Shown piece after piece: positions 6,411 through 30,963 of a DNA stretch of 64,000 nt. Under the pieces are notes generated by a model. The model searched no databases. It had not been told where the DNA came from and saw only the letters and a program-made list of their open reading frames with translations. Source of the DNA: a virus; IMG/VR virus record IMGVR_UViG_3300001681_000071, positions 1-64,000 of that record. One strand, written 5' to 3'. The first letter of the stretch is position 1; each line of letters starts with the position of its first letter. A program made the position numbers and the translations under genes.

Positions 6411-6499
6411 TTTTCGCTTTACCCGTCCAGCCAGGGCTAACCAGTAGCCCCATTTTCACTCTATTTATCTTTACTGCTAACCACAAACCGGAGAAAATA

Positions 6500-6666
6500 A
6501 TGTTGTATACACTGAAAACATGGAAAACCGAAAGCTCAAAACCACAGGAGCAAGAGCCCATCTACTTGCAAAGGTATGGATTTGGAAAGGTTTCCACTCC
6601 AAAATCCACATTATCTCTCGGAATGGAAAGGTTGTTACCGAACTAGATAAGCCAACTGCGGAATAG
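6500..6666 (+). CDS. small hypothetical protein, possibly frameshifted
   Basis: SD GGAG + ATG 6500 gives 48 aa. A second frame from ATG 6520 ends at the TAG (6666) that abuts the next repeat element. Confidence 0.45.
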
Positions 6667-6763
6667 TTTTCGCTTTACCCATCTCGCCAGGGCTAACCCG
6701 TAGCCCTATTTTCACTCTATTTATACTTTACCTATAACCCCCGACAATGGAAGGAACCCAACC

Positions 6764-6958
6764 ATGACACCTACTGAAATTAAAGAGCTTATTGAGTCAT
6801 ACAATAAAGATGATAACTGTGAAAGGTTCAAGACGGAAGAACTGCTAGTTCTTCTTAGCATCTTCAAAGGCGAGTGGCCCATAGTGGAAGAGTTAGAACT
6901 CAGAGCTATGGTACGACGTACCGTAAATGAGAGCGATTTTGCTTGCTACGGTACATAG
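6764..6958 (+). CDS. hypothetical protein
   Basis: 64-aa ORF between repeat elements, strong SD. Confidence 0.75.
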   Translation: MTPTEIKELIESYNKDDNCERFKTEELLVLLSIFKGEWPIVEELELRAMVRRTVNESDFACYGT

Positions 6959-7057: not shown

Positions 7058-7474
7058 ATGGATGACTATAGCTCAGTAATATATAGGAATAACCACAGGG
7101 CGGTGAGGCTACCGTCCACTCCACATGAGGTGGAGATCACCAAGAACTTAACCGACGAAGAACACGAAGCTCTTCAGGTGGTTGATGTATACAAAAAAAC
7201 ACAGCTTAACTCTATCCATCCGTGGATGGACTTAAACGATGAAGGGATGCTTTCCTCTCTGTGGGGTCGAGCTAGCTTTTGTGAAGGAAACACAGGGCCA
7301 GACGACACATACTACAATCCGGTGTTCCGGAACATAACAAAGGCTAACAGGGTTTTTGTTAGTCTTTTTGGACGAACAGAAGTTAGCAAAATGTCATACT
7401 GGTTCCTTCAAGGGCCAAACGAAGCAAACAAGACAGTAACAATCATTACGCAAATACAATTAGGAGGTGGATGA
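7058..7474 (+). CDS. hypothetical protein
   Basis: 138-aa ORF, strong SD. Confidence 0.8.
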   Translation: MDDYSSVIYRNNHRAVRLPSTPHEVEITKNLTDEEHEALQVVDVYKKTQLNSIHPWMDLNDEGMLSSLWGRASFCEGNTGPDDTYYNPVFRNITKANRVFVSLFGRTEVSKMSYWFLQGPNEANKTVTIITQIQLGGG

Positions 7475-7893
7475 TGGAAGATACAGAGACAACGGAAGAT
7501 ACAGCTATGGTTAACGCCATAGAGCAGCTATGGACGATGCTCAACAAACCCTCTAAGAGCAAGTACGAGGCCGATGTTAAAGCCAAGCGGGTGGCTAAGT
7601 CAGCCAAGCTGCTTGTGATCCGGATGACACCGGATGAACTCCCCTATGATATTACATGGTCCGATTGGGCCTATGGTAACTTGGAGGTTCCTATGTCTTA
7701 CCGGACGTTTAAGGACAATAATGGTAGCCCATACTTCTCGAAAGAGAACATAGAAAAAATGGAGGCGGATCGGGCTAACCTCCCAGAAGTTCCCGAAGCT
7801 TTCTGGGGTGCTATCTCCTTAGAAGAAGAAGCTAACCGTCGGGTGTTTAGAAACGCCCTCAGTACGGACGTTAGCATCGGGAGAGGTATTTAG
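7471..7893 (+). CDS. hypothetical protein
   Basis: ATGA overlap with the upstream gene, SD GGAGG. Confidence 0.8.
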   Translation: MMEDTETTEDTAMVNAIEQLWTMLNKPSKSKYEADVKAKRVAKSAKLLVIRMTPDELPYDITWSDWAYGNLEVPMSYRTFKDNNGSPYFSKENIEKMEADRANLPEVPEAFWGAISLEEEANRRVFRNALSTDVSIGRGI

Positions 7894-7973
7894 CCTGTTT
7901 AGCCATTTGGCGGTTGGCTCCCGTCTTTTAATTCTATTTATACTTTACTAACAACCAACCCGGAAGGAACCAA

Positions 7974-8078
7974 ATGACTAACCTTTTCTATCTTATACTA
8001 CTTGGCGGTGGGCTGATCTTATACGGACTTTTCGTCAATATACTTGAACGCCTAAACACGGAAGGAACCAATGAATAA
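7974..8078 (+). CDS. small single-TM membrane peptide (34 aa), not in the ORF track
   Basis: MTNLFYLILLGGGLILYGLFVNILERLNTEGTNE after a repeat element and SD GGAAGGA. Confidence 0.65.
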   Translation: MTNLFYLILLGGGLILYGLFVNILERLNTEGTNE

Positions 8079-8340
8079 ACCAATCCCGTTGCAAACAACT
8101 ATAGTTCATAGCCTCAGAAAGTATTCATTTGAGGGGGGCTATCCCCTGTTTTACACGGGAGAACACAACAATGTCCATTGCGCGGATTGCGCGGAAGAAT
8201 GTAGCTTCGACGATGCTAACTATGTCGCTCACCGGACAGAGGCCGTCAATTGGGAAAGCGAGATCCACTGTGATCTATGTTCAGAAAAGATCGAGTCAGC
8301 TTACGGATATGATGAAGATTCCGTGGAAGATGAAAGCTAG
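8071..8340 (+). CDS. small acidic zinc-binding protein
   Basis: GGYPLFY...CADC...CDLC...IESAYG. Confidence 0.75.
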   Translation: MNKPIPLQTTIVHSLRKYSFEGGYPLFYTGEHNNVHCADCAEECSFDDANYVAHRTEAVNWESEIHCDLCSEKIESAYGYDEDSVEDES

Positions 8341-8425
8341 CTCTCCAGGGGGATAGCGGGTTGCGCTACTCCTATTTTAAGATGATTTATACTTTACTAT
8401 ACAACCCAAACCAGAGGATAGAACC

Positions 8426-8896
8426 ATGGGACTACACCTAACAGAACTGTTCTGGAGCTATGATGAACCGGCTCCAGATTCGGCTACATTCCGGAAGATA
8501 ACACCGGAAGAATACCAGGAGCTACGCGCTCCTGTGGCTAACCGAATGAAGATGATACCTATCACTCTCTCGGTAGGTGCTAACGACTATCATAAGGTAG
8601 TTTTATACACGACAGAAGTTAACGGAGATGGAAGTAAGCGTGTTTTTATCAAAATACTTCCTTCTTTTTTACCTTCACGGGCTGTTGGCTTCGAGCAGTT
8701 AGGTCTTACGATCTGGACAAGCGATACCTATATAGACCCAAACCACTTCTGTAGGCTTTTCGGTGATGTTATCGAAGATAGCGACGAAGATAATATGGTC
8801 TTTCGGGCAACAAAGTACAAGTATGTTGGCTGGCGTGATGAATTAAATAGTTTGGGTGAGGTTGTACCAGAACGACTACCCTATATTCGCCAGTAG
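8426..8896 (+). CDS. hypothetical protein
   Basis: 156-aa ORF after a repeat element. Confidence 0.8.
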   Translation: MGLHLTELFWSYDEPAPDSATFRKITPEEYQELRAPVANRMKMIPITLSVGANDYHKVVLYTTEVNGDGSKRVFIKILPSFLPSRAVGFEQLGLTIWTSDTYIDPNHFCRLFGDVIEDSDEDNMVFRATKYKYVGWRDELNSLGEVVPERLPYIRQ

Positions 8897-9001
8897 CTCG
8901 TGTTTAGCTGTACTGCATTTATACCAAGGGGATAACTCCCCTATTTTAGGATGATTTTCATCTACTCAACTTTACCAACTAACAACCAACCAAGGAAGAC
9001 C

Positions 9002-9346
9002 ATGAGAGCTTTAACATTAAGAACAGATAAAAGAACTTTAGACTATAGGGAACACAGCCTACTGCTAAGTGTCCTGAAAGTTAAAAGTAGACAGATCCGC
9101 TATATGAAAGTGTATCTGGATAGCTTGCCATTGCTAACAAACAACGAGCGAAAGATTGATTATGGGCCATTGTTTGCTAGTTTTCTTGACGACAATGACC
9201 TAACCAGAAGTCATCGCTTGTTTATCAATAACTTTGGTAAAGCAAAAAGCGAGAGCATTCTGGATTGGGAGTTAGGGAAAGAGACAGATAGGGATGGAAC
9301 GATCCACGACAACGTAACTATTACCTATATTGTCCCAAGCGAATAG
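9002..9346 (+). CDS. hypothetical protein
   Basis: Start moved to the SD-associated ATG. Confidence 0.75.
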   Translation: MRALTLRTDKRTLDYREHSLLLSVLKVKSRQIRYMKVYLDSLPLLTNNERKIDYGPLFASFLDDNDLTRSHRLFINNFGKAKSESILDWELGKETDRDGTIHDNVTITYIVPSE

Positions 9347-9431
9347 GCTCAGTTCTAACTACCAAAGGGTGGCTATGTCGCCCTATTTTTAGACTATTTA
9401 TGCTTTACCAACAACCAGCCAAGGGGATGAT

Positions 9432-9644
9432 ATGAATAACTACAAAATAGTACGCTTTTACCAAGAACGTTTTGTTAGACAAGCAACAATAAAAGAAGGG
9501 CTTAGTCTTGAAGAAGCTAAGGACCACTGTAGCGATCCAGAAACGAGCAGTACAACTGCTAAGTCGGAAGAATCGGTAGCTCACACCAAGGAATTTGGAA
9601 AGTGGTTCGATGGATATAGAAAAGAAGACCAACCAAACAGATAA
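9432..9644 (+). CDS. small hypothetical protein
   Basis: YKIVRFY...IKEGLSLEEAKDHCSDPETSS...WFDGY; follows a repeat element. Confidence 0.75.
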   Translation: MNNYKIVRFYQERFVRQATIKEGLSLEEAKDHCSDPETSSTTAKSEESVAHTKEFGKWFDGYRKEDQPNR

Positions 9645-9762
9645 GCATTGTGGGTGTAACTATAATTATAGTTGTGCTGCACAAGCAAAAGAAGACTCAC
9701 ACACAAACCGGAAGGAAGAACCAATGATTACCACTACCAATCACAAACGAAGGAAGGAAGCT

Positions 9763-9924
9763 ATGAAAAACTACAAAGTTACTGGAGTATTACGAAGTGG
9801 AGCGCGGTTTAAGGCAATCCACACCACCAACCCTTATTATGCTATGGGTATAAACCTGTTTCGTGGTAACGTGTGGGAAAAGTCGAACGGCAAATGGAAG
9901 ATCATAAAGTCCGTTTGGAATTAA
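9763..9924 (+). CDS. small hypothetical protein
   Basis: SD GGAAGGAAG before MKNYKVTGV; alternative start at 9724. Confidence 0.65.
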   Translation: MKNYKVTGVLRSGARFKAIHTTNPYYAMGINLFRGNVWEKSNGKWKIIKSVWN

Positions 9925-10030
9925 GATAAGAAAAGCTTTACCGAAGGAGTAGGTTTGATAACCATCCTTCTATTTTCAGATGATTTATTTACCATTTTAC
10001 CAACTAACAACCAACCAAAGGAAGATAACC

Positions 10031-10603
10031 ATGGGACCAAGAGTACCACTGTCCGTTGCAAGGAAGCAGCGACAAGAGATAATAGCTCACATAGAGAGCG
10101 CCATTAAAAAAGCGATAGACCTAACGCCAGGGTGTCCGGTAGCTATGGACTTGTATACGCTAAAGGCGTTTGCAATAGCGTTAGCGGAAGCTGACGAATA
10201 CATAGGTGAACTGGAGAGAGCCACGCCACATGAGCCAGCACCTAAGCAAAGCTTGTTGGATAACACCAACGAGTATTACACTAACTACTACAAGTCGTTT
10301 CCCTATAGTGACAGCGAAGTAATAACAGGAAGCTTTCACGGAAGTCGTCTTACGGGATTCCCGGTAGACGAATGGTTACAAGGCTTTGATAATAACTGGT
10401 GGGTAGAGATATATGCTTGCCCATATACAGAAGATAAGCCACCTAAGTGTAAAGACGCCCTACCCAAGAGCGAGGTTAAGTCTTGGAGCCGGAAAGGTAG
10501 TGAATACTCAGAAGAGTATCCTCCGTTGTGGGGGTTTTCAGAGACTCCATGGGTCTTAGGTCCATGTGAGATCATGACCACATTGGGTAATACACTAAGC
10601 TAA
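10031..10603 (+). CDS. hypothetical protein
   Basis: Start moved to the SD-associated ATG. Confidence 0.75.
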   Translation: MGPRVPLSVARKQRQEIIAHIESAIKKAIDLTPGCPVAMDLYTLKAFAIALAEADEYIGELERATPHEPAPKQSLLDNTNEYYTNYYKSFPYSDSEVITGSFHGSRLTGFPVDEWLQGFDNNWWVEIYACPYTEDKPPKCKDALPKSEVKSWSRKGSEYSEEYPPLWGFSETPWVLGPCEIMTTLGNTLS

Positions 10604-23647: not shown

Positions 23648-24520
23648 ATGGAAAGGACGATAAGAATTGGCTCATTGTTTTCTGGTATTGGGGGGATTGA
23701 GCTTGGGTTAGAGTATGGTATTCAAAACTCTATAACTATTTGGCAAGTCGAGTCGAACGAATTTTGTCGCCAGGTGCTAAAGCGGCACTGGCCCAAGTCA
23801 AAAATCTATAACGATGTAAAGAAGGTAGGAAAACATAACTTAGAGCCTGTAGACATTATTTGTGGTGGCTTTCCGTGCCAAGATATTTCAATAGCCGGGA
23901 AAAGAGAGGGGATAAATGACGGTGCCAAATCGAGTCTTTGGTGGGAAATGTGGCGGGTTGTTAGCGAGCTACGACCCCGAATCGTCGTCATTGAGAATGT
24001 CTCAGCTATCACTTTTTCCGATGGCGGGGGATGGGAGTTACTACATTCCCTTGCCCAAATCGGGTACTCTTGCGAATGGATTGATTTACGAGCAAGTGAT
24101 CCCCCGTTCAACGCGCCACACGAACGAGAACGCATATTCTTTGTTGCCTACACCGACACCAGCACTGAATATGACCTCTCCTTCAATGATGAAACACCAA
24201 GGGCATCAGAACTTTCGTGCGCTATTGCCGACACCAACAACGAACGATTGCAAAAACACACCGGGCGGTGTAGCCCAATGGGAAAGGCACAGCAGCTTAA
24301 ATATAGAAGCCGCGAAGATGGCGGGACGAACAAAGACGACAATTGGAAAGGATTTCCGATTGAACCCCCGCTTTGTCGAAGAGATGATGGGATTTCCGAT
24401 AGGGTGGACAGACTTAGAGCGTTAGGGAACTCAGTTGTTCCGGCATGTAGTAGGTGGATTGGTAAGCGAATACAAGAGTCAGGTCTTTTAAGGAGAAGAG
24501 ATGCATCAACACTTCCATAA
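23648..24520 (+). CDS. DNA cytosine-C5 methyltransferase, large (alpha) chain lacking motif IX
   Basis: I SLFSGIGG, IV GGFPCQDIS, VI IENV, VIII APHERERIF, X RLRALGNSV. Confidence 0.92.
   Translation: MERTIRIGSLFSGIGGIELGLEYGIQNSITIWQVESNEFCRQVLKRHWPKSKIYNDVKKVGKHNLEPVDIICGGFPCQDISIAGKREGINDGAKSSLWWEMWRVVSELRPRIVVIENVSAITFSDGGGWELLHSLAQIGYSCEWIDLRASDPPFNAPHERERIFFVAYTDTSTEYDLSFNDETPRASELSCAIADTNNERLQKHTGRCSPMGKAQQLKYRSREDGGTNKDDNWKGFPIEPPLCRRDDGISDRVDRLRALGNSVVPACSRWIGKRIQESGLLRRRDASTLP
23916..24425 (+). CDS. nested alternative-frame ORF, putative beta chain of the C5 methyltransferase (motif IX)
   Basis: LLPTPT twice and RLNPRFVEEMMGFPIGWTD; own SD GAGGGG before ATG 23916. Confidence 0.75.
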   Translation: MTVPNRVFGGKCGGLLASYDPESSSLRMSQLSLFPMAGDGSYYIPLPKSGTLANGLIYEQVIPRSTRHTNENAYSLLPTPTPALNMTSPSMMKHQGHQNFRALLPTPTTNDCKNTPGGVAQWERHSSLNIEAAKMAGRTKTTIGKDFRLNPRFVEEMMGFPIGWTDLER

Positions 24521-25049
24521 AAATTTAAACGTTAAGAATATATTGTCACGATATAAACCATCGACAATTGTAGAACTTGGTGGGCTTAATGGAGCCAATA
24601 CTTTACAGTTACTCACGATGGGCAAAGTCATCACTATAAGTGATAATAAGATGCCCGATAAGCTCTCTCCTTTCGTTAAGAAAGGCGAACTAAAATGGAT
24701 ACAAGCACTATCGTTTAACGCTCTCAAATCATTTGCTGATGGCTCTATTGAATTCGCTAGTGTTGACACTGACCACAATTACACCACTCTAAAGTTAGAA
24801 CTTATAGAATTAAAAAGAGCAATGAAGAAAGATGGTGTTGTTGTTTTACATGATGTTGAAACCTTTAAGAATAGAAACAACCAACATTATACTCTTGAAT
24901 ATGCCAACGGAGAGCCATATAACTTTGCTCTAATGACACAAGGCCATAGCTACACAGCGGCTTTGACAGAAGAAATACAAGAGGGCGAATGGAAACTGTT
25001 GGATTGGTCAGAAGCGAGCAACGGAGCAGCGGCTATTATCAAAACTTAG
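24501..25049 (+). CDS. class I SAM-dependent methyltransferase (Methyltransf_24-like)
   Basis: IVELGGLNG, VDTDHNY, GVVVLHDV. Confidence 0.75.
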   Translation: MHQHFHKNLNVKNILSRYKPSTIVELGGLNGANTLQLLTMGKVITISDNKMPDKLSPFVKKGELKWIQALSFNALKSFADGSIEFASVDTDHNYTTLKLELIELKRAMKKDGVVVLHDVETFKNRNNQHYTLEYANGEPYNFALMTQGHSYTAALTEEIQEGEWKLLDWSEASNGAAAIIKT

Positions 25050-25050
25050 G

Positions 25051-25521
25051 TTACCTCTCCATCGCAGAGAAGCGAGGTGTTCTTCTTTTTTCATCGAAGA
25101 TCAATAGACAAGAAGGAGCCGGTGCTGAATTTGGTGCCTTTTGAAATTTGATACGTCCCCTCACAAGCCTAATTTCAGCCGCCCTCATAGCCCAATCGTG
25201 CCACCACTTGGTGTCTGTACGGGCAAATGTCAAGCAAACCACCGTACAGCCTTTGGTACTCTCCCAATACGATTTCTCAATCCATTTGCCCACTTCTCTC
25301 CCGTAAGGAGGGTTGAGCCACACTGCCTCTCCGCGAGAAATTTTATGCCATGGCAAACTCAAAGCATTCCGGGTCAGGTATAGAACACATTTATGGTTCT
25401 CAGCAGAGGCAGCAGCGTCCAATACAAAATTGAATTCATCATTGATCTTATTAAAGAAAGACCACGGAGTTCCCCAATCTTGTTTTTTGCTACTGAACAG
25501 TTTATCCTCGGACCAACTCAT
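25051..25521 (-). CDS. phage DNA N6-adenine methyltransferase
   Basis: DWGTP, F.LDAAAS..N.KC, WLNPPYG, ARTDTKWW, GRIKF. Confidence 0.9.
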   Translation of the reverse strand: MSWSEDKLFSSKKQDWGTPWSFFNKINDEFNFVLDAAASAENHKCVLYLTRNALSLPWHKISRGEAVWLNPPYGREVGKWIEKSYWESTKGCTVVCLTFARTDTKWWHDWAMRAAEIRLVRGRIKFQKAPNSAPAPSCLLIFDEKRRTPRFSAMER

Positions 25522-25850: not shown

Positions 25851-26801
25851 TTAGAAGAAGTTGTCTGCGTAGTCGGCTATTATTCCAAAATCTCTGAATA
25901 GTTTGCACCTATCAAGGTCTATGCCAACAATCCTTCCATTTAATTCTGACAAGTATTCTCTGCCAAATACAGCCTGTCTTGCCCTGTAAAGCACACCAAA
26001 GCTTTCACCTGTCTGAGACACCACCTTTTGTATCCTCATGTGCATACGGTCTATGTCTCGACCCACGTAGTATCTTCCTTTCTTCAATCCATGGAAGTCA
26101 CACAGCAAACTCTCTGTTATTGCCATATCTACGCCTAATCTTGCGTATTCTGGGTACTCAACTACACTCATTGATAGCTGTTTATGTATCCATCTGGCAT
26201 ATTCTTCCAAAACAACGCTTGGCGATGAGTTTGCCATACCAGTAATGTCGCATACTCCCCTCCTTGGGCCAGAGGCTTCGTCTATTTCCATGGTGGATGG
26301 TATTACATCGAAAACGTTAACCTTATGAAACATATCGGCAGATGTATAAGCAGCCCATCTGCCATTACCCCACACAGTTCTCAGATTGTTAAGAAGTGTT
26401 TTCCAATTGTCTTCTTTGGAATTGGTAAAGTCCTTCGTAAGATATTCTTTAGCACCACCGTTCTTAGATAATTCAACCAAGCTATTTATATGTTTCGTAA
26501 CACTGGTTGTTATAAGATTTCTGCGCTGTTTGCCTATATGAAGCTTATCGTAGTCCTCTGGTATACGTGTTGGATAAGGGTAGCGGAGGAACGTATAATA
26601 GGCAGAAGCCGGATTATAGAAGGCCATATAAAGAAATGATAACCACACTGCCTGTTCTGGATCCAGCCCTTTCTGTACCTCTATTAAAAGACCATGGAAC
26701 GGATCATAGTCCTTTGTTTTCAACTGCTTTCTCGCAAAGTCGTTAAAGTAAAACCACGTATCCGACTTTTTTACGCTGTCTGGATTTATGGTAGTTATCA
26801 T
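25851..26801 (-). CDS. amino acid:DNA transferase (AADT / aGPT-Pplase2 family)
   Basis: DYDP, WLSFLYMAFY, QRR, GNGRWAAY..AD, SGPRRG, ESLLCDF..L..GRYYVGRDID. Confidence 0.8.
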   Translation of the reverse strand: MITTINPDSVKKSDTWFYFNDFARKQLKTKDYDPFHGLLIEVQKGLDPEQAVWLSFLYMAFYNPASAYYTFLRYPYPTRIPEDYDKLHIGKQRRNLITTSVTKHINSLVELSKNGGAKEYLTKDFTNSKEDNWKTLLNNLRTVWGNGRWAAYTSADMFHKVNVFDVIPSTMEIDEASGPRRGVCDITGMANSSPSVVLEEYARWIHKQLSMSVVEYPEYARLGVDMAITESLLCDFHGLKKGRYYVGRDIDRMHMRIQKVVSQTGESFGVLYRARQAVFGREYLSELNGRIVGIDLDRCKLFRDFGIIADYADNFF

Positions 26802-27703
26802 TCTTTTCCCATTGGTTCTCTACATATTGGAAGAGTTAGACAAGCAAAACCACCCCCTAATTTCCTTATCTCGTTCATTTTGCTTTTATAAACTACTATT
26901 CCATTGTCTTCTAATATAGACTCGGTTTCAGGACAGTCATCTGGCATCAAAACAGAGTTTGGCGAAAGTGTAATCCAATTCATGGATAGTTTCTCGTTGA
27001 CCTCCTTGCTCGGTTTTAGATGTATAATCTCACCCGACCACTTAAAATTCTCTGTATCACTTCTGGTAAATAATCGTGTCCCAACAATGCGGTTTCCACC
27101 AAGTAAATGTTGTGGAATAGATGGGCCGAACTTATCAACATACTGCACTATACATCGTGTCTCATGGGACCAGAATTCAATTGCCTTTTTCTGGCTTCTG
27201 CCACCACAAGCAACACTAAAGGAGCCATCATTCATTATTAAGATGTCAGAAGCCTCAACAAAACCAATCATCAGTTTCATTGGAGAAGAATAATTACACC
27301 GAAACCACTTCATAATATAGTCAGCTTCACTACTCCTATGGGCTAACCCAGAGCGTGTAACATAAATCACATCACCAACTATTTTCGCCATATCGCGAAC
27401 AAACATTGAGTCAATGCTTTTACCACTACAAGCCTCATTTATATCCAAAACCTCTACTCCCAGACCCCGTAGCTTGGAAGTTAAAGAATCGAATTCCGTC
27501 AGTAATGTGTCATGGTTTGGAAGCTTAATCCAAGATGGCGGAGGCAAAGATGGCGGAGGCAAAGATGTACGTGAAGATAGAGTCATACGTGTATGCGAAA
27601 ACACTTCTGCATGAAATTTCAGATTGGTTGGGCGATTGACCAACACCGTAAACAGGTTCCCTGTTTCGTTTGTAATAAATGCACGCTTTTTATGTCCAAT
27701 CAT
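26798..27703 (-). CDS. amidinotransferase/ADI/DDAH (pentein) family enzyme
   Basis: NETGNL..VLV.RP, MFVRD, EASD (EGGD position), His in QHLL, C-terminal GGGFACLTLPICR with the catalytic Cys. Confidence 0.82.
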   Translation of the reverse strand: MIGHKKRAFITNETGNLFTVLVNRPTNLKFHAEVFSHTRMTLSSRTSLPPPSLPPPSWIKLPNHDTLLTEFDSLTSKLRGLGVEVLDINEACSGKSIDSMFVRDMAKIVGDVIYVTRSGLAHRSSEADYIMKWFRCNYSSPMKLMIGFVEASDILIMNDGSFSVACGGRSQKKAIEFWSHETRCIVQYVDKFGPSIPQHLLGGNRIVGTRLFTRSDTENFKWSGEIIHLKPSKEVNEKLSMNWITLSPNSVLMPDDCPETESILEDNGIVVYKSKMNEIRKLGGGFACLTLPICREPMGKE

Positions 27704-28787
27704 TTGAAGTCATCGGATATAAAAGCTGTTTCATAATCGTTCGTATTCTTTCTTTTTTTGCGAAAAGTAGTATTTCCTCTTTTCTTTTGTGCCATCTATA
27801 CTTCTTAGGGGAACTTGTTGCCATAGTGAGTTTAAGATCAATCGGATGCGGGGGCTCTATACCAATGTCCCTGCAAATCGTATGAATCATTCTTTGGGGA
27901 TGGGCTACAACTTCTTCAAACTTATAAGATAATGATATATTATATTTAAGTGCCATCGAATGTGCGTTTGCCCACTGGTTCAAACAAACCTCGATCAGCC
28001 TTTTGTTTTTGTCGTCATACCAGCCTGGGTAAAGGTCAAAACACCACCAATTATAATAATTGTAATTCTTAATATTAAGCCCTCCGACCTTGTAAGCAAA
28101 AAAGGCCCTTTTGTGCAACCATCCATCCATAAGTCCATTAACAGTAGCCGCAAAAGAACGTTTGAGATGTATATATTGAATCTCGCTAACGGGGAATAGT
28201 TCTTTAAATAAGCTTGGCCTATACACATTTTGCGGTGTTTTAAAGATGATGACCTTGCCACTTAAAGACAATGGATAAGAACATGCTGTTGGCATGACAA
28301 ATGGCGGTTCTTCCAGTATCACCTTGTGTTTTTGTGCTTCGCGGTCTTCCAATTTTCCATCGTACCAACTTTGGTCTACATCTTCAAATCTTGCCGTATC
28401 CTTGCCAGGCCATTGTAGTATCTTTCTTATGTGTATAGAATTTATAAGATGAGACTCTACACTAATATGCTTGTGACAAAGTTCTCCGCGCACAAGCGTT
28501 TTCAATTCTAATATATTATCAATTTTATCTAGTCTGTTCCCGCACAAGTAATCCTCATTCACAGCATTGCCAGTTAGCTTTAAATAAGGCTCTATCTCGC
28601 CTTGTAGGCTCACTACACTTGGGCTTCTGCTCAATACATCGAATAAACAACTACTCCCACTCCTTGAGGCCGTAAGAATTACAACTACTTTCTTTGGTTC
28701 GCCTATTGGGGAGTTGAGCAGTTTTCGGATATTGTTTTTTGCTGCCCCTATTTGATGATCATTCGGTTTCAACAATAGTTCTGGCAT
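27690..28787 (-). CDS. PAPS-dependent sulfotransferase family protein
   Basis: 5'-PSB loop ILTASRSGSSCL..VL..SP, KTP, IHLKR, FEEVVAHP...I..IC..IG. Confidence 0.8.
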   Translation of the reverse strand: MPELLLKPNDHQIGAAKNNIRKLLNSPIGEPKKVVVILTASRSGSSCLFDVLSRSPSVVSLQGEIEPYLKLTGNAVNEDYLCGNRLDKIDNILELKTLVRGELCHKHISVESHLINSIHIRKILQWPGKDTARFEDVDQSWYDGKLEDREAQKHKVILEEPPFVMPTACSYPLSLSGKVIIFKTPQNVYRPSLFKELFPVSEIQYIHLKRSFAATVNGLMDGWLHKRAFFAYKVGGLNIKNYNYYNWWCFDLYPGWYDDKNKRLIEVCLNQWANAHSMALKYNISLSYKFEEVVAHPQRMIHTICRDIGIEPPHPIDLKLTMATSSPKKYRWHKRKEEILLFAKKERIRTIMKQLLYPMTSNDWT

Positions 28788-29313
28788 TTGTATTGATCCA
28801 ATCTATTACTATCTCTGAAAGGGCTTTGGGGCTTTGCTTGCCATCTAAAATCAAACGGTCTCTATTCTTAAACATGTTAAAAAAGTTCTTTGCCTTTGTC
28901 TCCCTTCCCTTTAACCAATTTGCATTTTGATTGGACCCACGTTCTTTCCTACGTTCCACAAGAACATCATTTGGCAAATCTATCAATATACAAAAGCACC
29001 CGTCAGCGAATTCATTAACATATTCAAGACAGTATTTTGTAGAGAACCTATCGCCATCAAATATGGTGACAGAGTATTTTTCATTAGCCAGAAGAAAGCT
29101 ACTCCAATACTGCAAAGACTCTTTGAAGGCATTGTATGGAACGGTATCGCCACCATCGAACGTCTTCCCCAAGTAATGACCAGACAGTATGATGTTGTTT
29201 GTAAGGGTCCACTTTGGCTTAACTACAAACTCTGTATCGAATGGGTCAATATAGTTTCTTAGCATGGTTGTTTTTCCACAACCAGGAGAACCAACAACCC
29301 AAACTCCTATCAC
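28759..29313 (-). CDS. P-loop nucleotide kinase of base-hypermodification clusters (5-hydroxymethylpyrimidine DNA kinase-like)
   Basis: GSPGCGKTT, G.Y..KTFDGGD, DGDRF, RRKERGSNQ..NWLKGRETK. Confidence 0.78.
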   Translation of the reverse strand: MIGVWVVGSPGCGKTTMLRNYIDPFDTEFVVKPKWTLTNNIILSGHYLGKTFDGGDTVPYNAFKESLQYWSSFLLANEKYSVTIFDGDRFSTKYCLEYVNEFADGCFCILIDLPNDVLVERRKERGSNQNANWLKGRETKAKNFFNMFKNRDRLILDGKQSPKALSEIVIDWINTNARTIVETE

Positions 29314-30230
29314 AATGACTCCAGCTTTCTGGTGTTGTATTTCTTGGCCCTTTTAAGCTCCTCTTCTGGGGATAAGCAGCCAAGGATACGGTTTCTAAGA
29401 TACATAACTACGCTAACTCGATACCAATCCTTATTCTTTTTTCCTTCGGCTTTTGGAGGAATATTGCCGTGCCATACAGCAGGGTTAAAAAGTATAAAAT
29501 CGCCATGCCGCATATTTACAGCCAAGCTAAATTCTGGAAGGACCAATTCAAATCCAGAATAATCTCCGTGTCTCATGGCAAACATGCAACCAAAACCTTC
29601 TTTAAGGTCGCCACTGTCTTGATGATAAGCAGCACACACCGTATTATTGACGGAGATTGTTGAAAATGGTGTGCCAGGTACTACCCAAGCTGGATGAGCT
29701 TTGTTTGCAAATTCTGTTTGTATCTCATGGAAGTTTGGCAGCAAAGACTTATAGATCCGCGAACACTTCCGCAAGTGTTTGGCAATTTTTGCCCATTCCT
29801 CTGGGTGGTCGCGTGTATACGTTGTTGCTCTACAATATGGGAAGCGACCTCCAACGCTCTCATAAAATCCACCTATAGAGCTGTAGACGGAGACCATTCT
29901 GCCATTTTCATCTAATGATCTCTCTGATTTAGATAATGTGCCATCCTTTTTGATTACCCGACTTTGCTTGTATCCGGCATATGCCGCCCTTGCATCTGAT
30001 GGGTATCTCATAAATTCCCTATATGGCTTTCTCACTTCTTCCAGTTCTTCGTCAGTGAAACATCCACGCCTCATAAGTATAATGGGTATACCATTGCTGC
30101 TATATACATCACAATTGCCGTCTATTATTAGACCATAATGGTTAGGTCTTGGATGGGTAGATTTCCAAGGCTCTATCTTTTCAGCCGATACTTTCGACCT
30201 TACCACTATCTTCATTGTTTTCATTATCAT
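29310..30230 (-). CDS. TET/JBP-family 2OG-Fe(II) dioxygenase
   Basis: PFSTISVN, HQD (HxD), GDL..GFG, WHGN (distal His), RVSVVMYLR (2OG-binding Arg); phage-type YCRAT region. Confidence 0.88.
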   Translation of the reverse strand: MIMKTMKIVVRSKVSAEKIEPWKSTHPRPNHYGLIIDGNCDVYSSNGIPIILMRRGCFTDEELEEVRKPYREFMRYPSDARAAYAGYKQSRVIKKDGTLSKSERSLDENGRMVSVYSSIGGFYESVGGRFPYCRATTYTRDHPEEWAKIAKHLRKCSRIYKSLLPNFHEIQTEFANKAHPAWVVPGTPFSTISVNNTVCAAYHQDSGDLKEGFGCMFAMRHGDYSGFELVLPEFSLAVNMRHGDFILFNPAVWHGNIPPKAEGKKNKDWYRVSVVMYLRNRILGCLSPEEELKRAKKYNTRKLESL

Positions 30231-30963
30231 CACCACCAAGACGCTTGTACTCTGCCATTACCGCTTCATAAACTGTATCTGGCATATTATCCGTGTCATA
30301 TGCGTATGATAACGACTTACAAGCCATCTTGAATTTTTGGCACTTCTCGTTTTCAAATATAAGCTGAATCATTCTGGAAGTAGAAATAGTTGGATTATCT
30401 ATCGTGATTACATCTTCGGCAATTGCGTCTTCATCTCCAGAATCCCAGACATTAGTAACGGTAGAATTTTCTGTTCTTCCACCAGCACCAGCATTGGCAT
30501 CATTGCCACTATACTTTTCATCGGGAGGAGCAAAGAAGTCTAAGGAGTCGTCTATTCCCCCAAAGGAATTGATCAAATCATCCATTTCACTACCAGTGAA
30601 GCCAAGCATCGTTGGATCAAAATCTGCAAGTTTGGCTAACTCTTCTAAGTGGTGTGCAAGCATAGCCTCATCCCATCCGGACAGTTCTCCAGAACGATTG
30701 AGCCTAATAGATAATTTTCTTGCTACCTCATCGGATACGTCCAAATAAACTATATTTGTTGTTTCGTATCCGAGTTCCTTTAAAACCTTTAGCCTTGCAT
30801 TCCCAGCAATAACCATTTGGGTTGTTTTCTGAACAATTAACGGCTCTACCTGCCCATGATCTTCAATGCTATCTCGTATAGCTGCATAGTTTTGTTCATT
30901 GTGTTTTCTTGGGTTTTGCGGATCATAGACAAGTAAATCAACTTCAACTTCGGCATATTCCAT
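30181..30963 (-). CDS. ParB/Srx N-terminal domain protein
   Basis: PQNPRKH...IRDSIEDHGQVEPLIV...IAGNARL...LNR..ELSGWD. Confidence 0.85.
   Translation of the reverse strand: MEYAEVEVDLLVYDPQNPRKHNEQNYAAIRDSIEDHGQVEPLIVQKTTQMVIAGNARLKVLKELGYETTNIVYLDVSDEVARKLSIRLNRSGELSGWDEAMLAHHLEELAKLADFDPTMLGFTGSEMDDLINSFGGIDDSLDFFAPPDEKYSGNDANAGAGGRTENSTVTNVWDSGDEDAIAEDVITIDNPTISTSRMIQLIFENEKCQKFKMACKSLSYAYDTDNMPDTVYEAVMAEYKRLGGDDNENNEDSGKVESIG

Follow-up and report, generated by a model that had tools for sequence, protein, structure and literature searches.

A predicted guanidino-group hydrolase of the pentein type is encoded in the 64,000-nucleotide stretch of viral DNA analysed here (the window). Its constant partner is a sulfotransferase-like gene. 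This pairing suggests that phage DNA carries a decoration not yet described, derived from arginine and possibly sulfated. According to the best explanation, which is held tentatively and at a little under an even chance, the cysteine hydrolase and a PAPS-type sulfotransferase would make or complete an arginine-derived side chain whose final place is on thymidines derived from 5-hmU, with synthesis of the amino acid donor favoured as the role of the pair. The hydrolase clade is known only from uncultured phages.

Features of the hydrolase gene and its neighbours, in window coordinates
Feature	Position	Strand	Evidence or remark
AADT / aGPT-Pplase (amino acid:DNA transferase)	25851..26801	-	PF18724, 71.4 bits (cut-off 26.2)
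Pentein (ADI/DDAH-type) guanidino-group hydrolase, 301 aa	26798..27703	-	Focal gene; predicted function
Cys288 codon, predicted nucleophile	26840..26842	-	Aligns with PaDDAH C249 and the catalytic Cys of ADI
Leu201 codon	27101..27103	-	Position of the second guanidino-binding Asp of ADI (HLD)
His199 codon	27107..27109	-	Aligns with PaDDAH H162 and the His of HLD in ADI
Glu150 codon	27254..27256	-	Aligns with PaDDAH E114 and the E of EGGD in ADI
Asp104 codon, F.RD motif	27392..27394	-	Aligns with PaDDAH D66 and the D of FTRD in ADI
Perfect 15-nt tandem repeat, 2.4 copies, encoding LPPPS-LPPPS	27532..27567	.	TRF score 72
Sulfotransferase-like protein, 365 aa	27690..28787	-	PF13469; directly upstream of the hydrolase gene
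P-loop nucleotide kinase 3 family, candidate 5-hydroxymethylpyrimidine DNA kinase	28759..29313	-	PF18751, 29.1 bits (cut-off 27)
TET/JBP-type 5-methylpyrimidine dioxygenase	29310..30239	-	PF12851, 76.2 bits (cut-off 34.9)
ParB-like protein, first in the overlapping six-gene chain	30181..30963	-	PF02195 (ParB_N), 32.9 bits; phrog_620, E 2e-35

The hydrolase reading frame is considered a real gene because a search among 1.8 billion representatives returned 199 homologues at E<=1e-3, the best of them at E 8e-49. Its AF2 model (pLDDT 89.1, pTM 0.88) has the five-fold pseudosymmetric alpha/beta propeller of the penteins, with pLDDT values of 74-96 around the triad, and superimposes on liganded arginine deiminase (ADI) structures with an rmsd of 2.0-2.4. 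The amidinotransferase-like fold that an earlier note on this DNA had proposed is thus borne out by the model and by profile and structure matches to DDAH and ADI.

Among the known guanidino-modifying enzymes, the P. aeruginosa DDAH (PaDDAH; 1h70, 3rhy) is both the best sequence-profile match, which runs end to end (E 1.4e-36), and the best Foldseek match. As with the phage hydrolase, it is a single-domain pentein of similar size that possesses a Cys-His-Glu triad, a guanidino-binding Asp and both carboxylate-binding Arg residues. The two also share an E-A-x-D motif, and neither has an Asp after His-Leu (HLK in PaDDAH, HLL in the hydrolase). In contrast, their identity is only ~20%, their genomic contexts are entirely different, R103 of the hydrolase occupies the position of DDAH E65, and the hydrolase family has hallmarks of its own (PQHLLG, E-V and CPET). 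The highest structural Z, 31.8 over 277 residues with an rmsd of 2.4, was obtained with ADI (4bof, 2a9g, 1lxy), which has the motifs PN..F.RD, R..E, EG.D, G.RT and GG..C in common with the hydrolase. However, the ~100-residue helical insertion domain of ADI is missing from the hydrolase (301 aa, compared with ~410 for ADI), the profile match falls into three stretches, the Pfam ADI family (PF02274) covers residues 239-295 only, and of the two guanidino-binding Asp residues of ADI, D104 is present while the HLD Asp is L201. ArgZ/AgrE (6jv0, 6lrf) differ in being fused to further domains. The bit scores of the hydrolase against curated families fall below the cut-offs, both for DDAH (NCBIfam NF045658/59/60, 43.7, 33.5 and 24.0 against 340, 450 and 300) and for ADI (TIGR01078, 24.6 against 489.1; PRK01388, 33.3 against 414), as well as for PF19420 (15.7 against 23) and the NCBIfam Arg_dihydro (17 against 450). 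The protein is provisionally placed in the ADI/DDAH branch of the pentein superfamily, outside the curated ADI and DDAH families.

The predicted active site is formed by the motifs MFVRD (R103, D104), VEASD (E150, D153) and PQHLLGG (H199, L201), and by C288 within GGGFACLTLPICR, i.e. GGGFAC(288)LTLPICR. The elements listed in the earlier note, namely F.RD, the His, the C-terminal Cys motif, EASD and HLL, were all found in the translation of the 301-aa reading frame. Likewise, its view that a Cys-His-acid triad is retained agrees with the alignments to PaDDAH and ADI and with the conservation of these residues in 44 or 45 of the 45 family representatives. Specifically, Cys288 is kept in 44 representatives and in all locus copies, His199 and Glu150 in all 45, and Asp104 in 44. 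Across the 45 representatives and the 27 locus-encoded copies together, little or no variation is seen at C288, H199, E150, D104, R123, R169, E126 and N242. The Cys288-His199-Glu150 triad is retained, with its geometry predicted from the alignments, and the hydrolase is predicted to be catalytically intact.

Residues that would hold an amino acid substrate are conserved as well. R123 and R169 align with R85 and R132 of PaDDAH and with the RxxE and G.RT motifs of ADI; in 1h70 and the ADI structures, we take the residues at these positions to hold the alpha-carboxylate of the substrate. Position 98, which is D in the window and N elsewhere, aligns with DDAH D60 and with the N of PN..F.RD in ADI. 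D60 is presumably the alpha-amino binder of DDAH, whose substrate set we take to be D60, D66, R85 and R132 (1h70). In the alignments, D98, D104, R123 and R169 of the hydrolase match this set, and a second guanidino Asp is absent.

The description of this active-site signature as altered does not hold in the form given by the earlier note. Its comparators, EGGD and HLD, are arginine-deiminase motifs, and its reading of EGGD as EASD is correct, but both acidic residues remain; as judged by alignment, EASD is a minor variant of the EGAD of the family. The loss of a guanidino-binding Asp is supported insofar as L201 aligns with the D of MHLD in ADI 4bof. However, this is not peculiar to the window, as Leu is found at position 201 in 40 of the 45 representatives and PaDDAH (3rhy) has the K of HLK (K164) there. 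HLL is a trait of a family of ~200 clusters, and either HLL or HIL is present in all 27 of the locus-encoded copies that cover the site. Because it is a hallmark of the family, and because PaDDAH also does without that Asp, HLL is not a lesion.

The same position bears on whether the enzyme could act by transfer. Amidination of DNA, one of three roles that the earlier note had offered, would require that the amidino group of arginine pass to Cys288 and from there to an amine, either of the modified base or of a donor, yielding a guanidinylated base. The hydrolase does have profile matches to AGAT (E 5e-16, positions 122-277, in the C-terminal half only) and StrB1 (E 4e-06), although the similarity to AGAT is much weaker than that to DDAH and ADI. 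Moreover, the second Asp expected of amidinotransferases (AGAT, StrB1, SxtG), which we take to be D305 in AGAT, corresponds to the Leu found in most family representatives, and the cellular partner of the same sulfotransferase family is an arginase-fold hydrolase, as described below. Amidino transfer is therefore very improbable and the least supported of the three roles; the other two, trimming of an arginyl adduct and supply of a donor, are both taken up below.

The hydrolase gene belongs to a six-gene overlapping chain on the minus strand, which spans 30963 to 25851. Its stop codon TGA and the start codon ATG of the AADT share the sequence ATGA. This overlap, reported in the earlier note, was confirmed, and together with the chain it upholds the proposed translational coupling to the AADT inside a DNA hypermodification operon. 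The nearest GenBank relatives of the AADT are ~30% identical, are annotated aGPT-Pplase2 and come from actinophages. By its gene content, which comprises a kinase, an AADT and a source of 5-hmU, the chain is predicted to be a cluster for post-replicative thymidine hypermodification. The same gene families occur in the pathways of phages ViI, M6, PaMx11 and PhiW-14 and in ParB-dependent clusters (PMC8989533, PMC11472151, PMC13229309), and the 5mYOXs colocalised with ParB are predicted or shown T-dioxygenases linked to P-loop kinases and AADTs (PMC13229309). The tailoring enzymes described for these systems are PLP decarboxylases, radical-SAM and FAD enzymes, GATases and amidoligases (PMC8989533, PMC11472151, PMC13229309). 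These three papers mention no pentein enzyme and no sulfotransferase, and PMC13229309 contains no sulfo-, arginine or amidino- terms. A full-text literature search found nothing tying phages or hypermodification to an amidinotransferase, deiminase, DDAH or sulfotransferase. Additionally, megablast of the operon against 50,697 GenBank phage records and tblastn searches of cultured phages with the hydrolase, a clade-B hydrolase and the sulfotransferase gave no match.

Within these neighbourhoods, the constant partner of the hydrolase is not the AADT but the sulfotransferase-like gene, which the earlier note had missed. In the window, the hydrolase gene shares its first 14 nt with the end of the sulfotransferase-like gene. 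Neighbourhoods of the homologues were taken from IMG/VR, metagenome and genome scans, the viral contigs being scanned with the ten-sequence alignment A2. Of the 18 testable viral or metagenomic loci, 17 have the two genes side by side, usually with an overlap, and roughly half have an AADT. The sulfotransferase gene is directly upstream, mostly with an overlap of 7-29 nt, in the window and in loci L002-L004 and L006-L009, and is separated from the hydrolase by one gene in L005. It likewise adjoins the hydrolase in nine metagenomic contigs. C-terminal sulfotransferase fragments lie upstream of the hydrolase in L090 and L095, and in L100 the 250 nt upstream of the gene hold no detectable fragment. 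At least three cluster architectures of uncultured phages, some of them with large T4-like genomes, contain the pair.

The partner scores 27.1 bits with PF13469, a borderline value given the cut-off of 27.0, and its Atlas clusters are named sulfotransferase. The motifs RSGSS and HLKR..VNGLMDGW, as well as R210, are invariant in alignment A3. Its AF2 model is of medium confidence (pLDDT 70), with the sulfotransferase domains of CurM/OLS and TPST as the nearest PDB folds at a weak TM of 0.4-0.5; a search of the PDB by sequence gave no match. The complex prediction for the sulfotransferase (A3) with the hydrolase (A1) gave 0.00, compared with a mark of 0.32, and is not counted on either side of the question of binding. 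No PAPS-synthesis gene is encoded by the phage, whose genome lacks both APS kinase (PF01583) and PAPS reductase (PF01507). This counts against the best explanation, as do the borderline Pfam score and medium-confidence model behind the identity of the sulfotransferase.

Sulfotransferases of the same family are also found in cells, with a different partner. In all 80 of the bacterial or archaeal loci, the gene overlaps an arginase-family gene (PF00491), whose nearest PDB entries are arginase 8d27 and DcsB 6lug, and a pentein neighbour was found in none of them. A HemK-like N-methyltransferase gene lies upstream in 77 of the 80. In a quick sulfotransferase tree, viral and cellular sequences are split by a single label change, consistent with one swap of partner. 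The methyltransferase-sulfotransferase-arginase-like cassette of the Burkholderiales, which is uncharacterised, has a sulfotransferase of this family with 30-37% identity and the motifs VNGLMDGW and FKTP. As in the phage pair, translational coupling joins the sulfotransferase gene to that of a guanidino-group hydrolase; unlike the phage pair, this hydrolase has the arginase fold, and the cassette includes an N-methyltransferase and often an FAD/NAD(P)-binding protein. The arginase fold cannot transfer amidino groups. That two guanidino-hydrolase folds with no relation to each other take the same place favours an arginine-type substrate that is hydrolysed over amidino transfer. Arginase yields an amine and urea, while a deiminase or DDAH yields a ureido compound and ammonia or an amine, so the products of the two partners would be equal only if the pentein enzyme were a dihydrolase like ArgZ. 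This counts against the best explanation; no evidence of such a second hydrolytic step was found for the phage pentein. A precedent for the combination exists in the clethramycin/mediomycin pathway, where a PAPS sulfotransferase and a guanidino-removing hydrolase finish one arginine-derived metabolite in either order (PMC5704753). That pathway differs in that its substrate is a polyketide and its hydrolase is arginase-type and unlinked (PMC5704753).

The chemistry of these reactions also allows for a role in nitrogen supply. GATases are frequent in ParB-dependent T-dioxygenase clusters (PMC13229309), and Pfam annotation found none in the cluster of the window. In parallel to the GATases, the hydrolase might deiminate free arginine and so feed an amination step with ammonia or with a substituted amine, since ADI/DDAH-type reactions release such products. 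Nevertheless, this role seems quite improbable, as it leaves unexplained both the obligate sulfotransferase partner and the replacement of the hydrolase in cells by an arginase-type enzyme, which produces urea and not ammonia.

The cellular cassette has no DNA-modification genes nearby, and viral copies of the hydrolase and sulfotransferase are mostly acidic (pI 5-6). Both observations would suit a pair unrelated to DNA that makes or destroys an arginine-derived metabolite for host takeover, signalling or a toxin/antidote system and merely rides in an early or modification block. This, however, is improbable because in every viral locus with context the pair is placed between genes of the hydroxymethylpyrimidine pathway, flanked by TET/ParB/kinase/AADT genes or by thymidylate-synthase-like genes and kinases, often via overlapping reading frames.

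Hypermodifications of phage DNA defeat restriction enzymes and CRISPR nucleases, and they have been a source of useful enzymes, among them DNA kinases, AADTs and TETs. Thymidine tailoring is known to include decarboxylation, isomerisation, oxidation and acylation, a range that a guanidino-group hydrolase locked to a sulfotransferase would extend to arginine chemistry and possibly to sulfation. A bolder proposal, and a doubtful one, is that the pair marks a new branch of pyrimidine hypermodification in which 5-hmU-derived bases carry a sulfated, arginine-derived (ornithine- or citrulline-like) side chain, while the Burkholderiales cassette makes a related free metabolite. If true, a nucleobase bearing sulfate or sulfamate would be seen in DNA for the first time. 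Since the pair is found in no cultured phage, the modification would be invisible to nucleoside surveys of isolates. The link to a widespread, unexplained cellular cassette also means that both problems could be tested with one substrate set.

In the best explanation, the predicted substrate is an L-arginine-like moiety, that is, an alpha-amino acid with a guanidino group, which is probably N-omega-substituted like the substrates of DDAH. Cys288 would attack the guanidino carbon with the help of His199 and Glu150 and leave a ureido or amino group, and the sulfotransferase and hydrolase together would produce the arginine-derived side chain. In the phage of the window, thymidine would be hydroxylated by ParB/TET, activated by the P-loop kinase and substituted by the AADT. 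The hydrolase probably acts on the free amino acid before the AADT does, which is favoured over action on a DNA-bound adduct. AADTs accept free amino acids or putrescine (PMC8989533). This small-molecule stage is preferred because most viral copies are acidic and because in architecture-B loci the pair occurs without an AADT in the contigs searched, for which a positive control was run; these contigs are 12-54% complete, and the AADT could be elsewhere in the genomes.

Alternatively, the AADT might attach L-arginine through its alpha-amino group to activated 5-hmU, after which the hydrolase would take the tethered arginyl side chain into its pore and give citrullinyl- or ornithinyl-thymidine, and the sulfotransferase would modify the same adduct. 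The other members of the overlapping chain act on DNA, the hydrolase stop overlaps the AADT start, and in known pathways the amino acid is tailored after transfer (PMC8989533, PMC11472151). An N-alpha-linked adduct would also keep a free alpha-carboxylate for R123 and R169. On the other hand, the alpha-amino-binding position (D98 or N) is kept, which suggests a free amine. The acidic character of most family members, the clusters with the pair and no detectable AADT, and the cellular cassettes of the same sulfotransferase family, with no DNA enzyme nearby, also speak against tailoring on DNA, which is considered rather unlikely.

Two features of the window copies would nonetheless fit a DNA-bound substrate and weigh against donor synthesis. 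Unlike most of their relatives, the hydrolase and sulfotransferase of the window are basic, with pI values of 8.4 and 9.2; as a proxy for DNA binding, the isoelectric point gave a mixed outcome and is a weak hint only. The hydrolase also carries an N-terminal insertion at about residues 30-60, modelled with low confidence (pLDDT 54-70), which is absent from its homologues (alignments A1 and A2) and lies near the pore entrance and the region that forms a lid in DDAH. The LPPPS repeat sits inside this insertion and appears to be a recent duplication; a variant that is 98% identical to the hydrolase (P0001) is without one 5-aa repeat unit.

The window lies in an IMG/VR virus record of 79,172 bp that is rated complete. 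Its gene for a predicted pentein hydrolase belongs to a single chain of six overlapping minus-strand genes (see table). The start of this gene lies 14 nt within the 3' end of the upstream sulfotransferase-like gene, and, as the earlier note had read, its stop codon and the start of the downstream amino acid:DNA transferase (AADT) gene have an ATGA in common. In a 2026 paper (PMC13229309), 5mYOX enzymes associated with ParB are assigned to the T-dioxygenases and tied to P-loop kinases and AADTs. The donors that AADTs attach to kinase-activated 5-hmdU are putrescine or free amino acids (PMC8989533). No pentein enzyme and no sulfotransferase is mentioned for such clusters in either paper or in the results of full-text literature searches. 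The sulfotransferase-hydrolase module would be a new tailoring variant inside known pyrimidine hypermodification pathways. Additionally, a Dam-type N6-adenine methyltransferase gene follows the AADT gene, and a C5 cytosine methyltransferase gene and a Methyltransf_24 gene converge on the operon.

Genes and sequence features of the window and of related loci
Sequence	Feature	Position	Strand	Pfam or remark
Window	ParB-like (gene 1 of chain)		minus	PF02195
Window	TET/JBP dioxygenase (gene 2)		minus	PF12851
Window	P-loop kinase 3 (gene 3)		minus	PF18751
Window	Sulfotransferase-like protein (gene 4)	27690-28787	minus	PF13469, score at cut-off
Window	Pentein hydrolase (gene 5)	26798-27703	minus	PF02274, C-terminus only
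Window	AADT (gene 6)	25851-26801	minus	PF18724
Window	Perfect 15-nt tandem repeat, 2.4 copies	27532-27567		Encodes LPPPS-LPPPS, within the hydrolase insertion
Window	C5 cytosine methyltransferase, Methyltransf_24 and Dam-type N6-adenine methyltransferase genes	23648-25521	plus (first two)	
L004	Adenylosuccinate-synthetase-like, 357 aa	940-2013		PF00709
L005	Nucleoside 2-deoxyribosyltransferase-like	6426-6887		PF15891, E 2e-34
L006	Two thymidylate-synthase-fold genes	7701-8672; 9473-10348		
L012	HemK-like N-methyltransferase, sulfotransferase, arginase-family hydrolase	7234-10027		

The hydrolase has 301 residues, of which Pfam recognizes only the C-terminal 57 as ADI (25.2 bits). An exhaustive HMMER search identified homologues in 199 cluster representatives at E<=1e-3, including 44 at E<=1e-10. 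A profile of 45 family representatives, 42 of which match PF02274 and 23 PF19420, aligned over its full length with the DDAH of Pseudomonas aeruginosa (PaDDAH; 3rhy, E 1.4e-36), followed by arginine deiminases (1e-31), human DDAH-1 (4e-26) and the arginine dihydrolase ArgZ (7e-23); the match to AGAT was weak (5e-16). The AF2 model (pLDDT 89.1, pTM 0.88) likewise had PaDDAH as its top Foldseek match, with a target-normalised TM of 0.84, and the NCBIfam equivalog scores were all an order of magnitude under their cut-offs. The hydrolase therefore represents a clade of its own, as yet unnamed, that falls between those of ADI and DDAH and is new within a known superfamily.

The motifs listed in the earlier note are all present in the ORF, namely MFVRD (R103-D104), VEASD (E150...D153), PQHLLGG (H199, L201) and GGGFAC(288)LTLPICR. 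When residues were mapped through profile alignments to 3rhy and 4bof, C288 and H199 aligned with the catalytic Cys and His, E150 with the triad Glu, and D104 with the guanidino Asp of F.RD. Similarly, R123 and R169 aligned with the two DDAH/ADI arginines that hold the substrate alpha-carboxylate, and Asp at position 98 with the alpha-amino binder, which is D60 in DDAH and Asn in ADI. All of these positions are invariant or nearly so, both among the 45 representatives and across all copies from 27 viral or metagenomic loci. Because the putative binders of the alpha-carboxylate and alpha-amino groups are conserved, the alignment points to an amino-acid moiety as the predicted substrate, rather than agmatine or a peptide. 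The altered signature from which a shifted substrate had been proposed proved to be largely that of the family. While EASD is present as read, it is a local variant of the family EGAD/EAAD that retains both acidic residues. The change from HLD to HLL is a real loss of Asp relative to ADI and AGAT, with L201 falling exactly on the Asp of the ADI motif, but it is a DDAH-like family hallmark, the position being Leu in 40 of the 45 representatives and Lys in PaDDAH. In DDAH, the missing second guanidino Asp goes together with N-omega-substituted arginines.

Relatives of the hydrolase were found at eight loci in IMG/VR and on nineteen contigs from metagenomes. At 17 of the 18 loci with upstream DNA, the sulfotransferase gene lies directly upstream, usually with an overlap of 7-29 nt. 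L005 is the sole locus where one gene, nucleoside 2-deoxyribosyltransferase-like, interrupts the pair, and no sulfotransferase fragment was found in the 250 nt upstream of the hydrolase gene of L100. Architecture A, ParB-TET-kinase-sulfotransferase-hydrolase-AADT, occurs in the window, L002/L003 and L091, and the hydrolase-AADT junction is present too in L090, L092, L093 and L096. In architecture A' (L004/L107, L094 and L101) the order is AADT-sulfotransferase-hydrolase. Architecture B, P-loop kinase-sulfotransferase-hydrolase-thymidylate-synthase-like-APH-type kinase-thymidylate-synthase-like, is found in L005-L009, L099, L102-L104 and L108. A search with a positive control found no AADT in the architecture-B contigs, which are 12-54% complete. 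Thus, the coupling to AADT emphasized in the earlier note is real in the clade of the window hydrolase but not general, as judged from these partial contigs, whereas the coupling to the sulfotransferase is general. Neither gene was found in any GenBank phage. Position 98 is Asp wherever the AADT gene comes after the hydrolase gene (architecture A) and Asn in A' and B, and may be a specificity marker. The two thymidylate-synthase-fold genes of architecture B (L006, also L005, L007-L009 and L102-L104) include one weakly similar to the CMP hydroxymethylase MilA (E 0.035), and between them, immediately 3' of the hydrolase gene, is an APH-type small-molecule kinase.

The viral sulfotransferases share 30-37% identity and the motifs VNGLMDGW, FKTP and RSGSS with cellular homologues, sampled here from 80 genomes, bacterial and in a few cases archaeal, mostly of Oxalobacteraceae and other Burkholderiales. 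No pentein or hypermodification gene was found within 8 kb of the sulfotransferase at these 80 loci. An arginase-family gene overlaps its 3' end in all 80, a HemK-like N-methyltransferase lies upstream in 77, and about half add a downstream FAD/NAD(P)-binding protein. The resulting three-gene cassette (L010-L089, for example L012) is strictly conserved, and the nearest matches of its arginase-like protein are arginase 8d27 and the N-omega-hydroxy-arginine amidinohydrolase DcsB. In a quick, midpoint-rooted ML tree with long viral branches, one branch (SH-aLRT 86) separates the viral, pentein-linked sulfotransferases from the cellular, arginase-linked ones, which fits a single partner swap. The cassettes of Kerfeldbacteria, Parcubacteria and Woesearchaeota MAGs (L023, L031, L067 and L039) are nested in the Burkholderiales clade, reflecting either recent transfer or bin contamination.

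Pentein and arginase are unrelated folds that share a slot next to a single sulfotransferase family, and their common chemistry is guanidino-group hydrolysis. For this reason, the most economical reading is that the phage enzyme hydrolyses the guanidino group of a substrate of the arginine type. The shared slot and the absent second Asp disfavour the amidino transfer considered earlier. The products of arginase and deiminase would be identical only if the pentein enzyme were a dihydrolase. We favour action on the free amino acid, in donor synthesis, because no AADT accompanies the pair in the partial architecture-B contigs, no DNA enzymes accompany its cellular counterpart, the alpha-amino binder is retained and most copies are acidic. 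The copy of the window phage is basic and carries an additional insertion, and these properties keep alive action on an N-alpha-linked adduct on DNA. The insertion, of about 30 residues (30-60) and low model confidence, is peculiar to this phage and absent from homologues. The LPPPS repeat within it is polymorphic, since one of its units is missing from a database variant of 98% identity. The sulfotransferase may sulfate the arginine-derived product or, alternatively, turn a hydroxyl into a leaving group; the structures most similar to it, though only weakly so, are the 'activating' sulfotransferase domains of CurM and OLS. In a polyketide precedent, sulfotransfer and amidinohydrolysis complete one guanidino metabolite (PMC5704753).

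The nearest viral pentein-fold models are proteins annotated as a 'glycine amidinotransferase' of Campylobacter phage CP20 (BFVD A0A410T7C9) and an 'inosamine-phosphate amidinotransferase' of an uncultured phage. Their TM to the hydrolase is 0.62-0.70, and tblastn detects no sequence relationship. Pentein enzymes therefore exist in other phages with modified DNA. Lastly, the 188-kb T4-like contig L004 encodes a short adenylosuccinate-synthetase-like protein 2.6 kb upstream of AADT-sulfotransferase-hydrolase. This may be a PurZ-type enzyme, in which case 2-aminoadenine and thymidine hypermodification might coexist in one phage.
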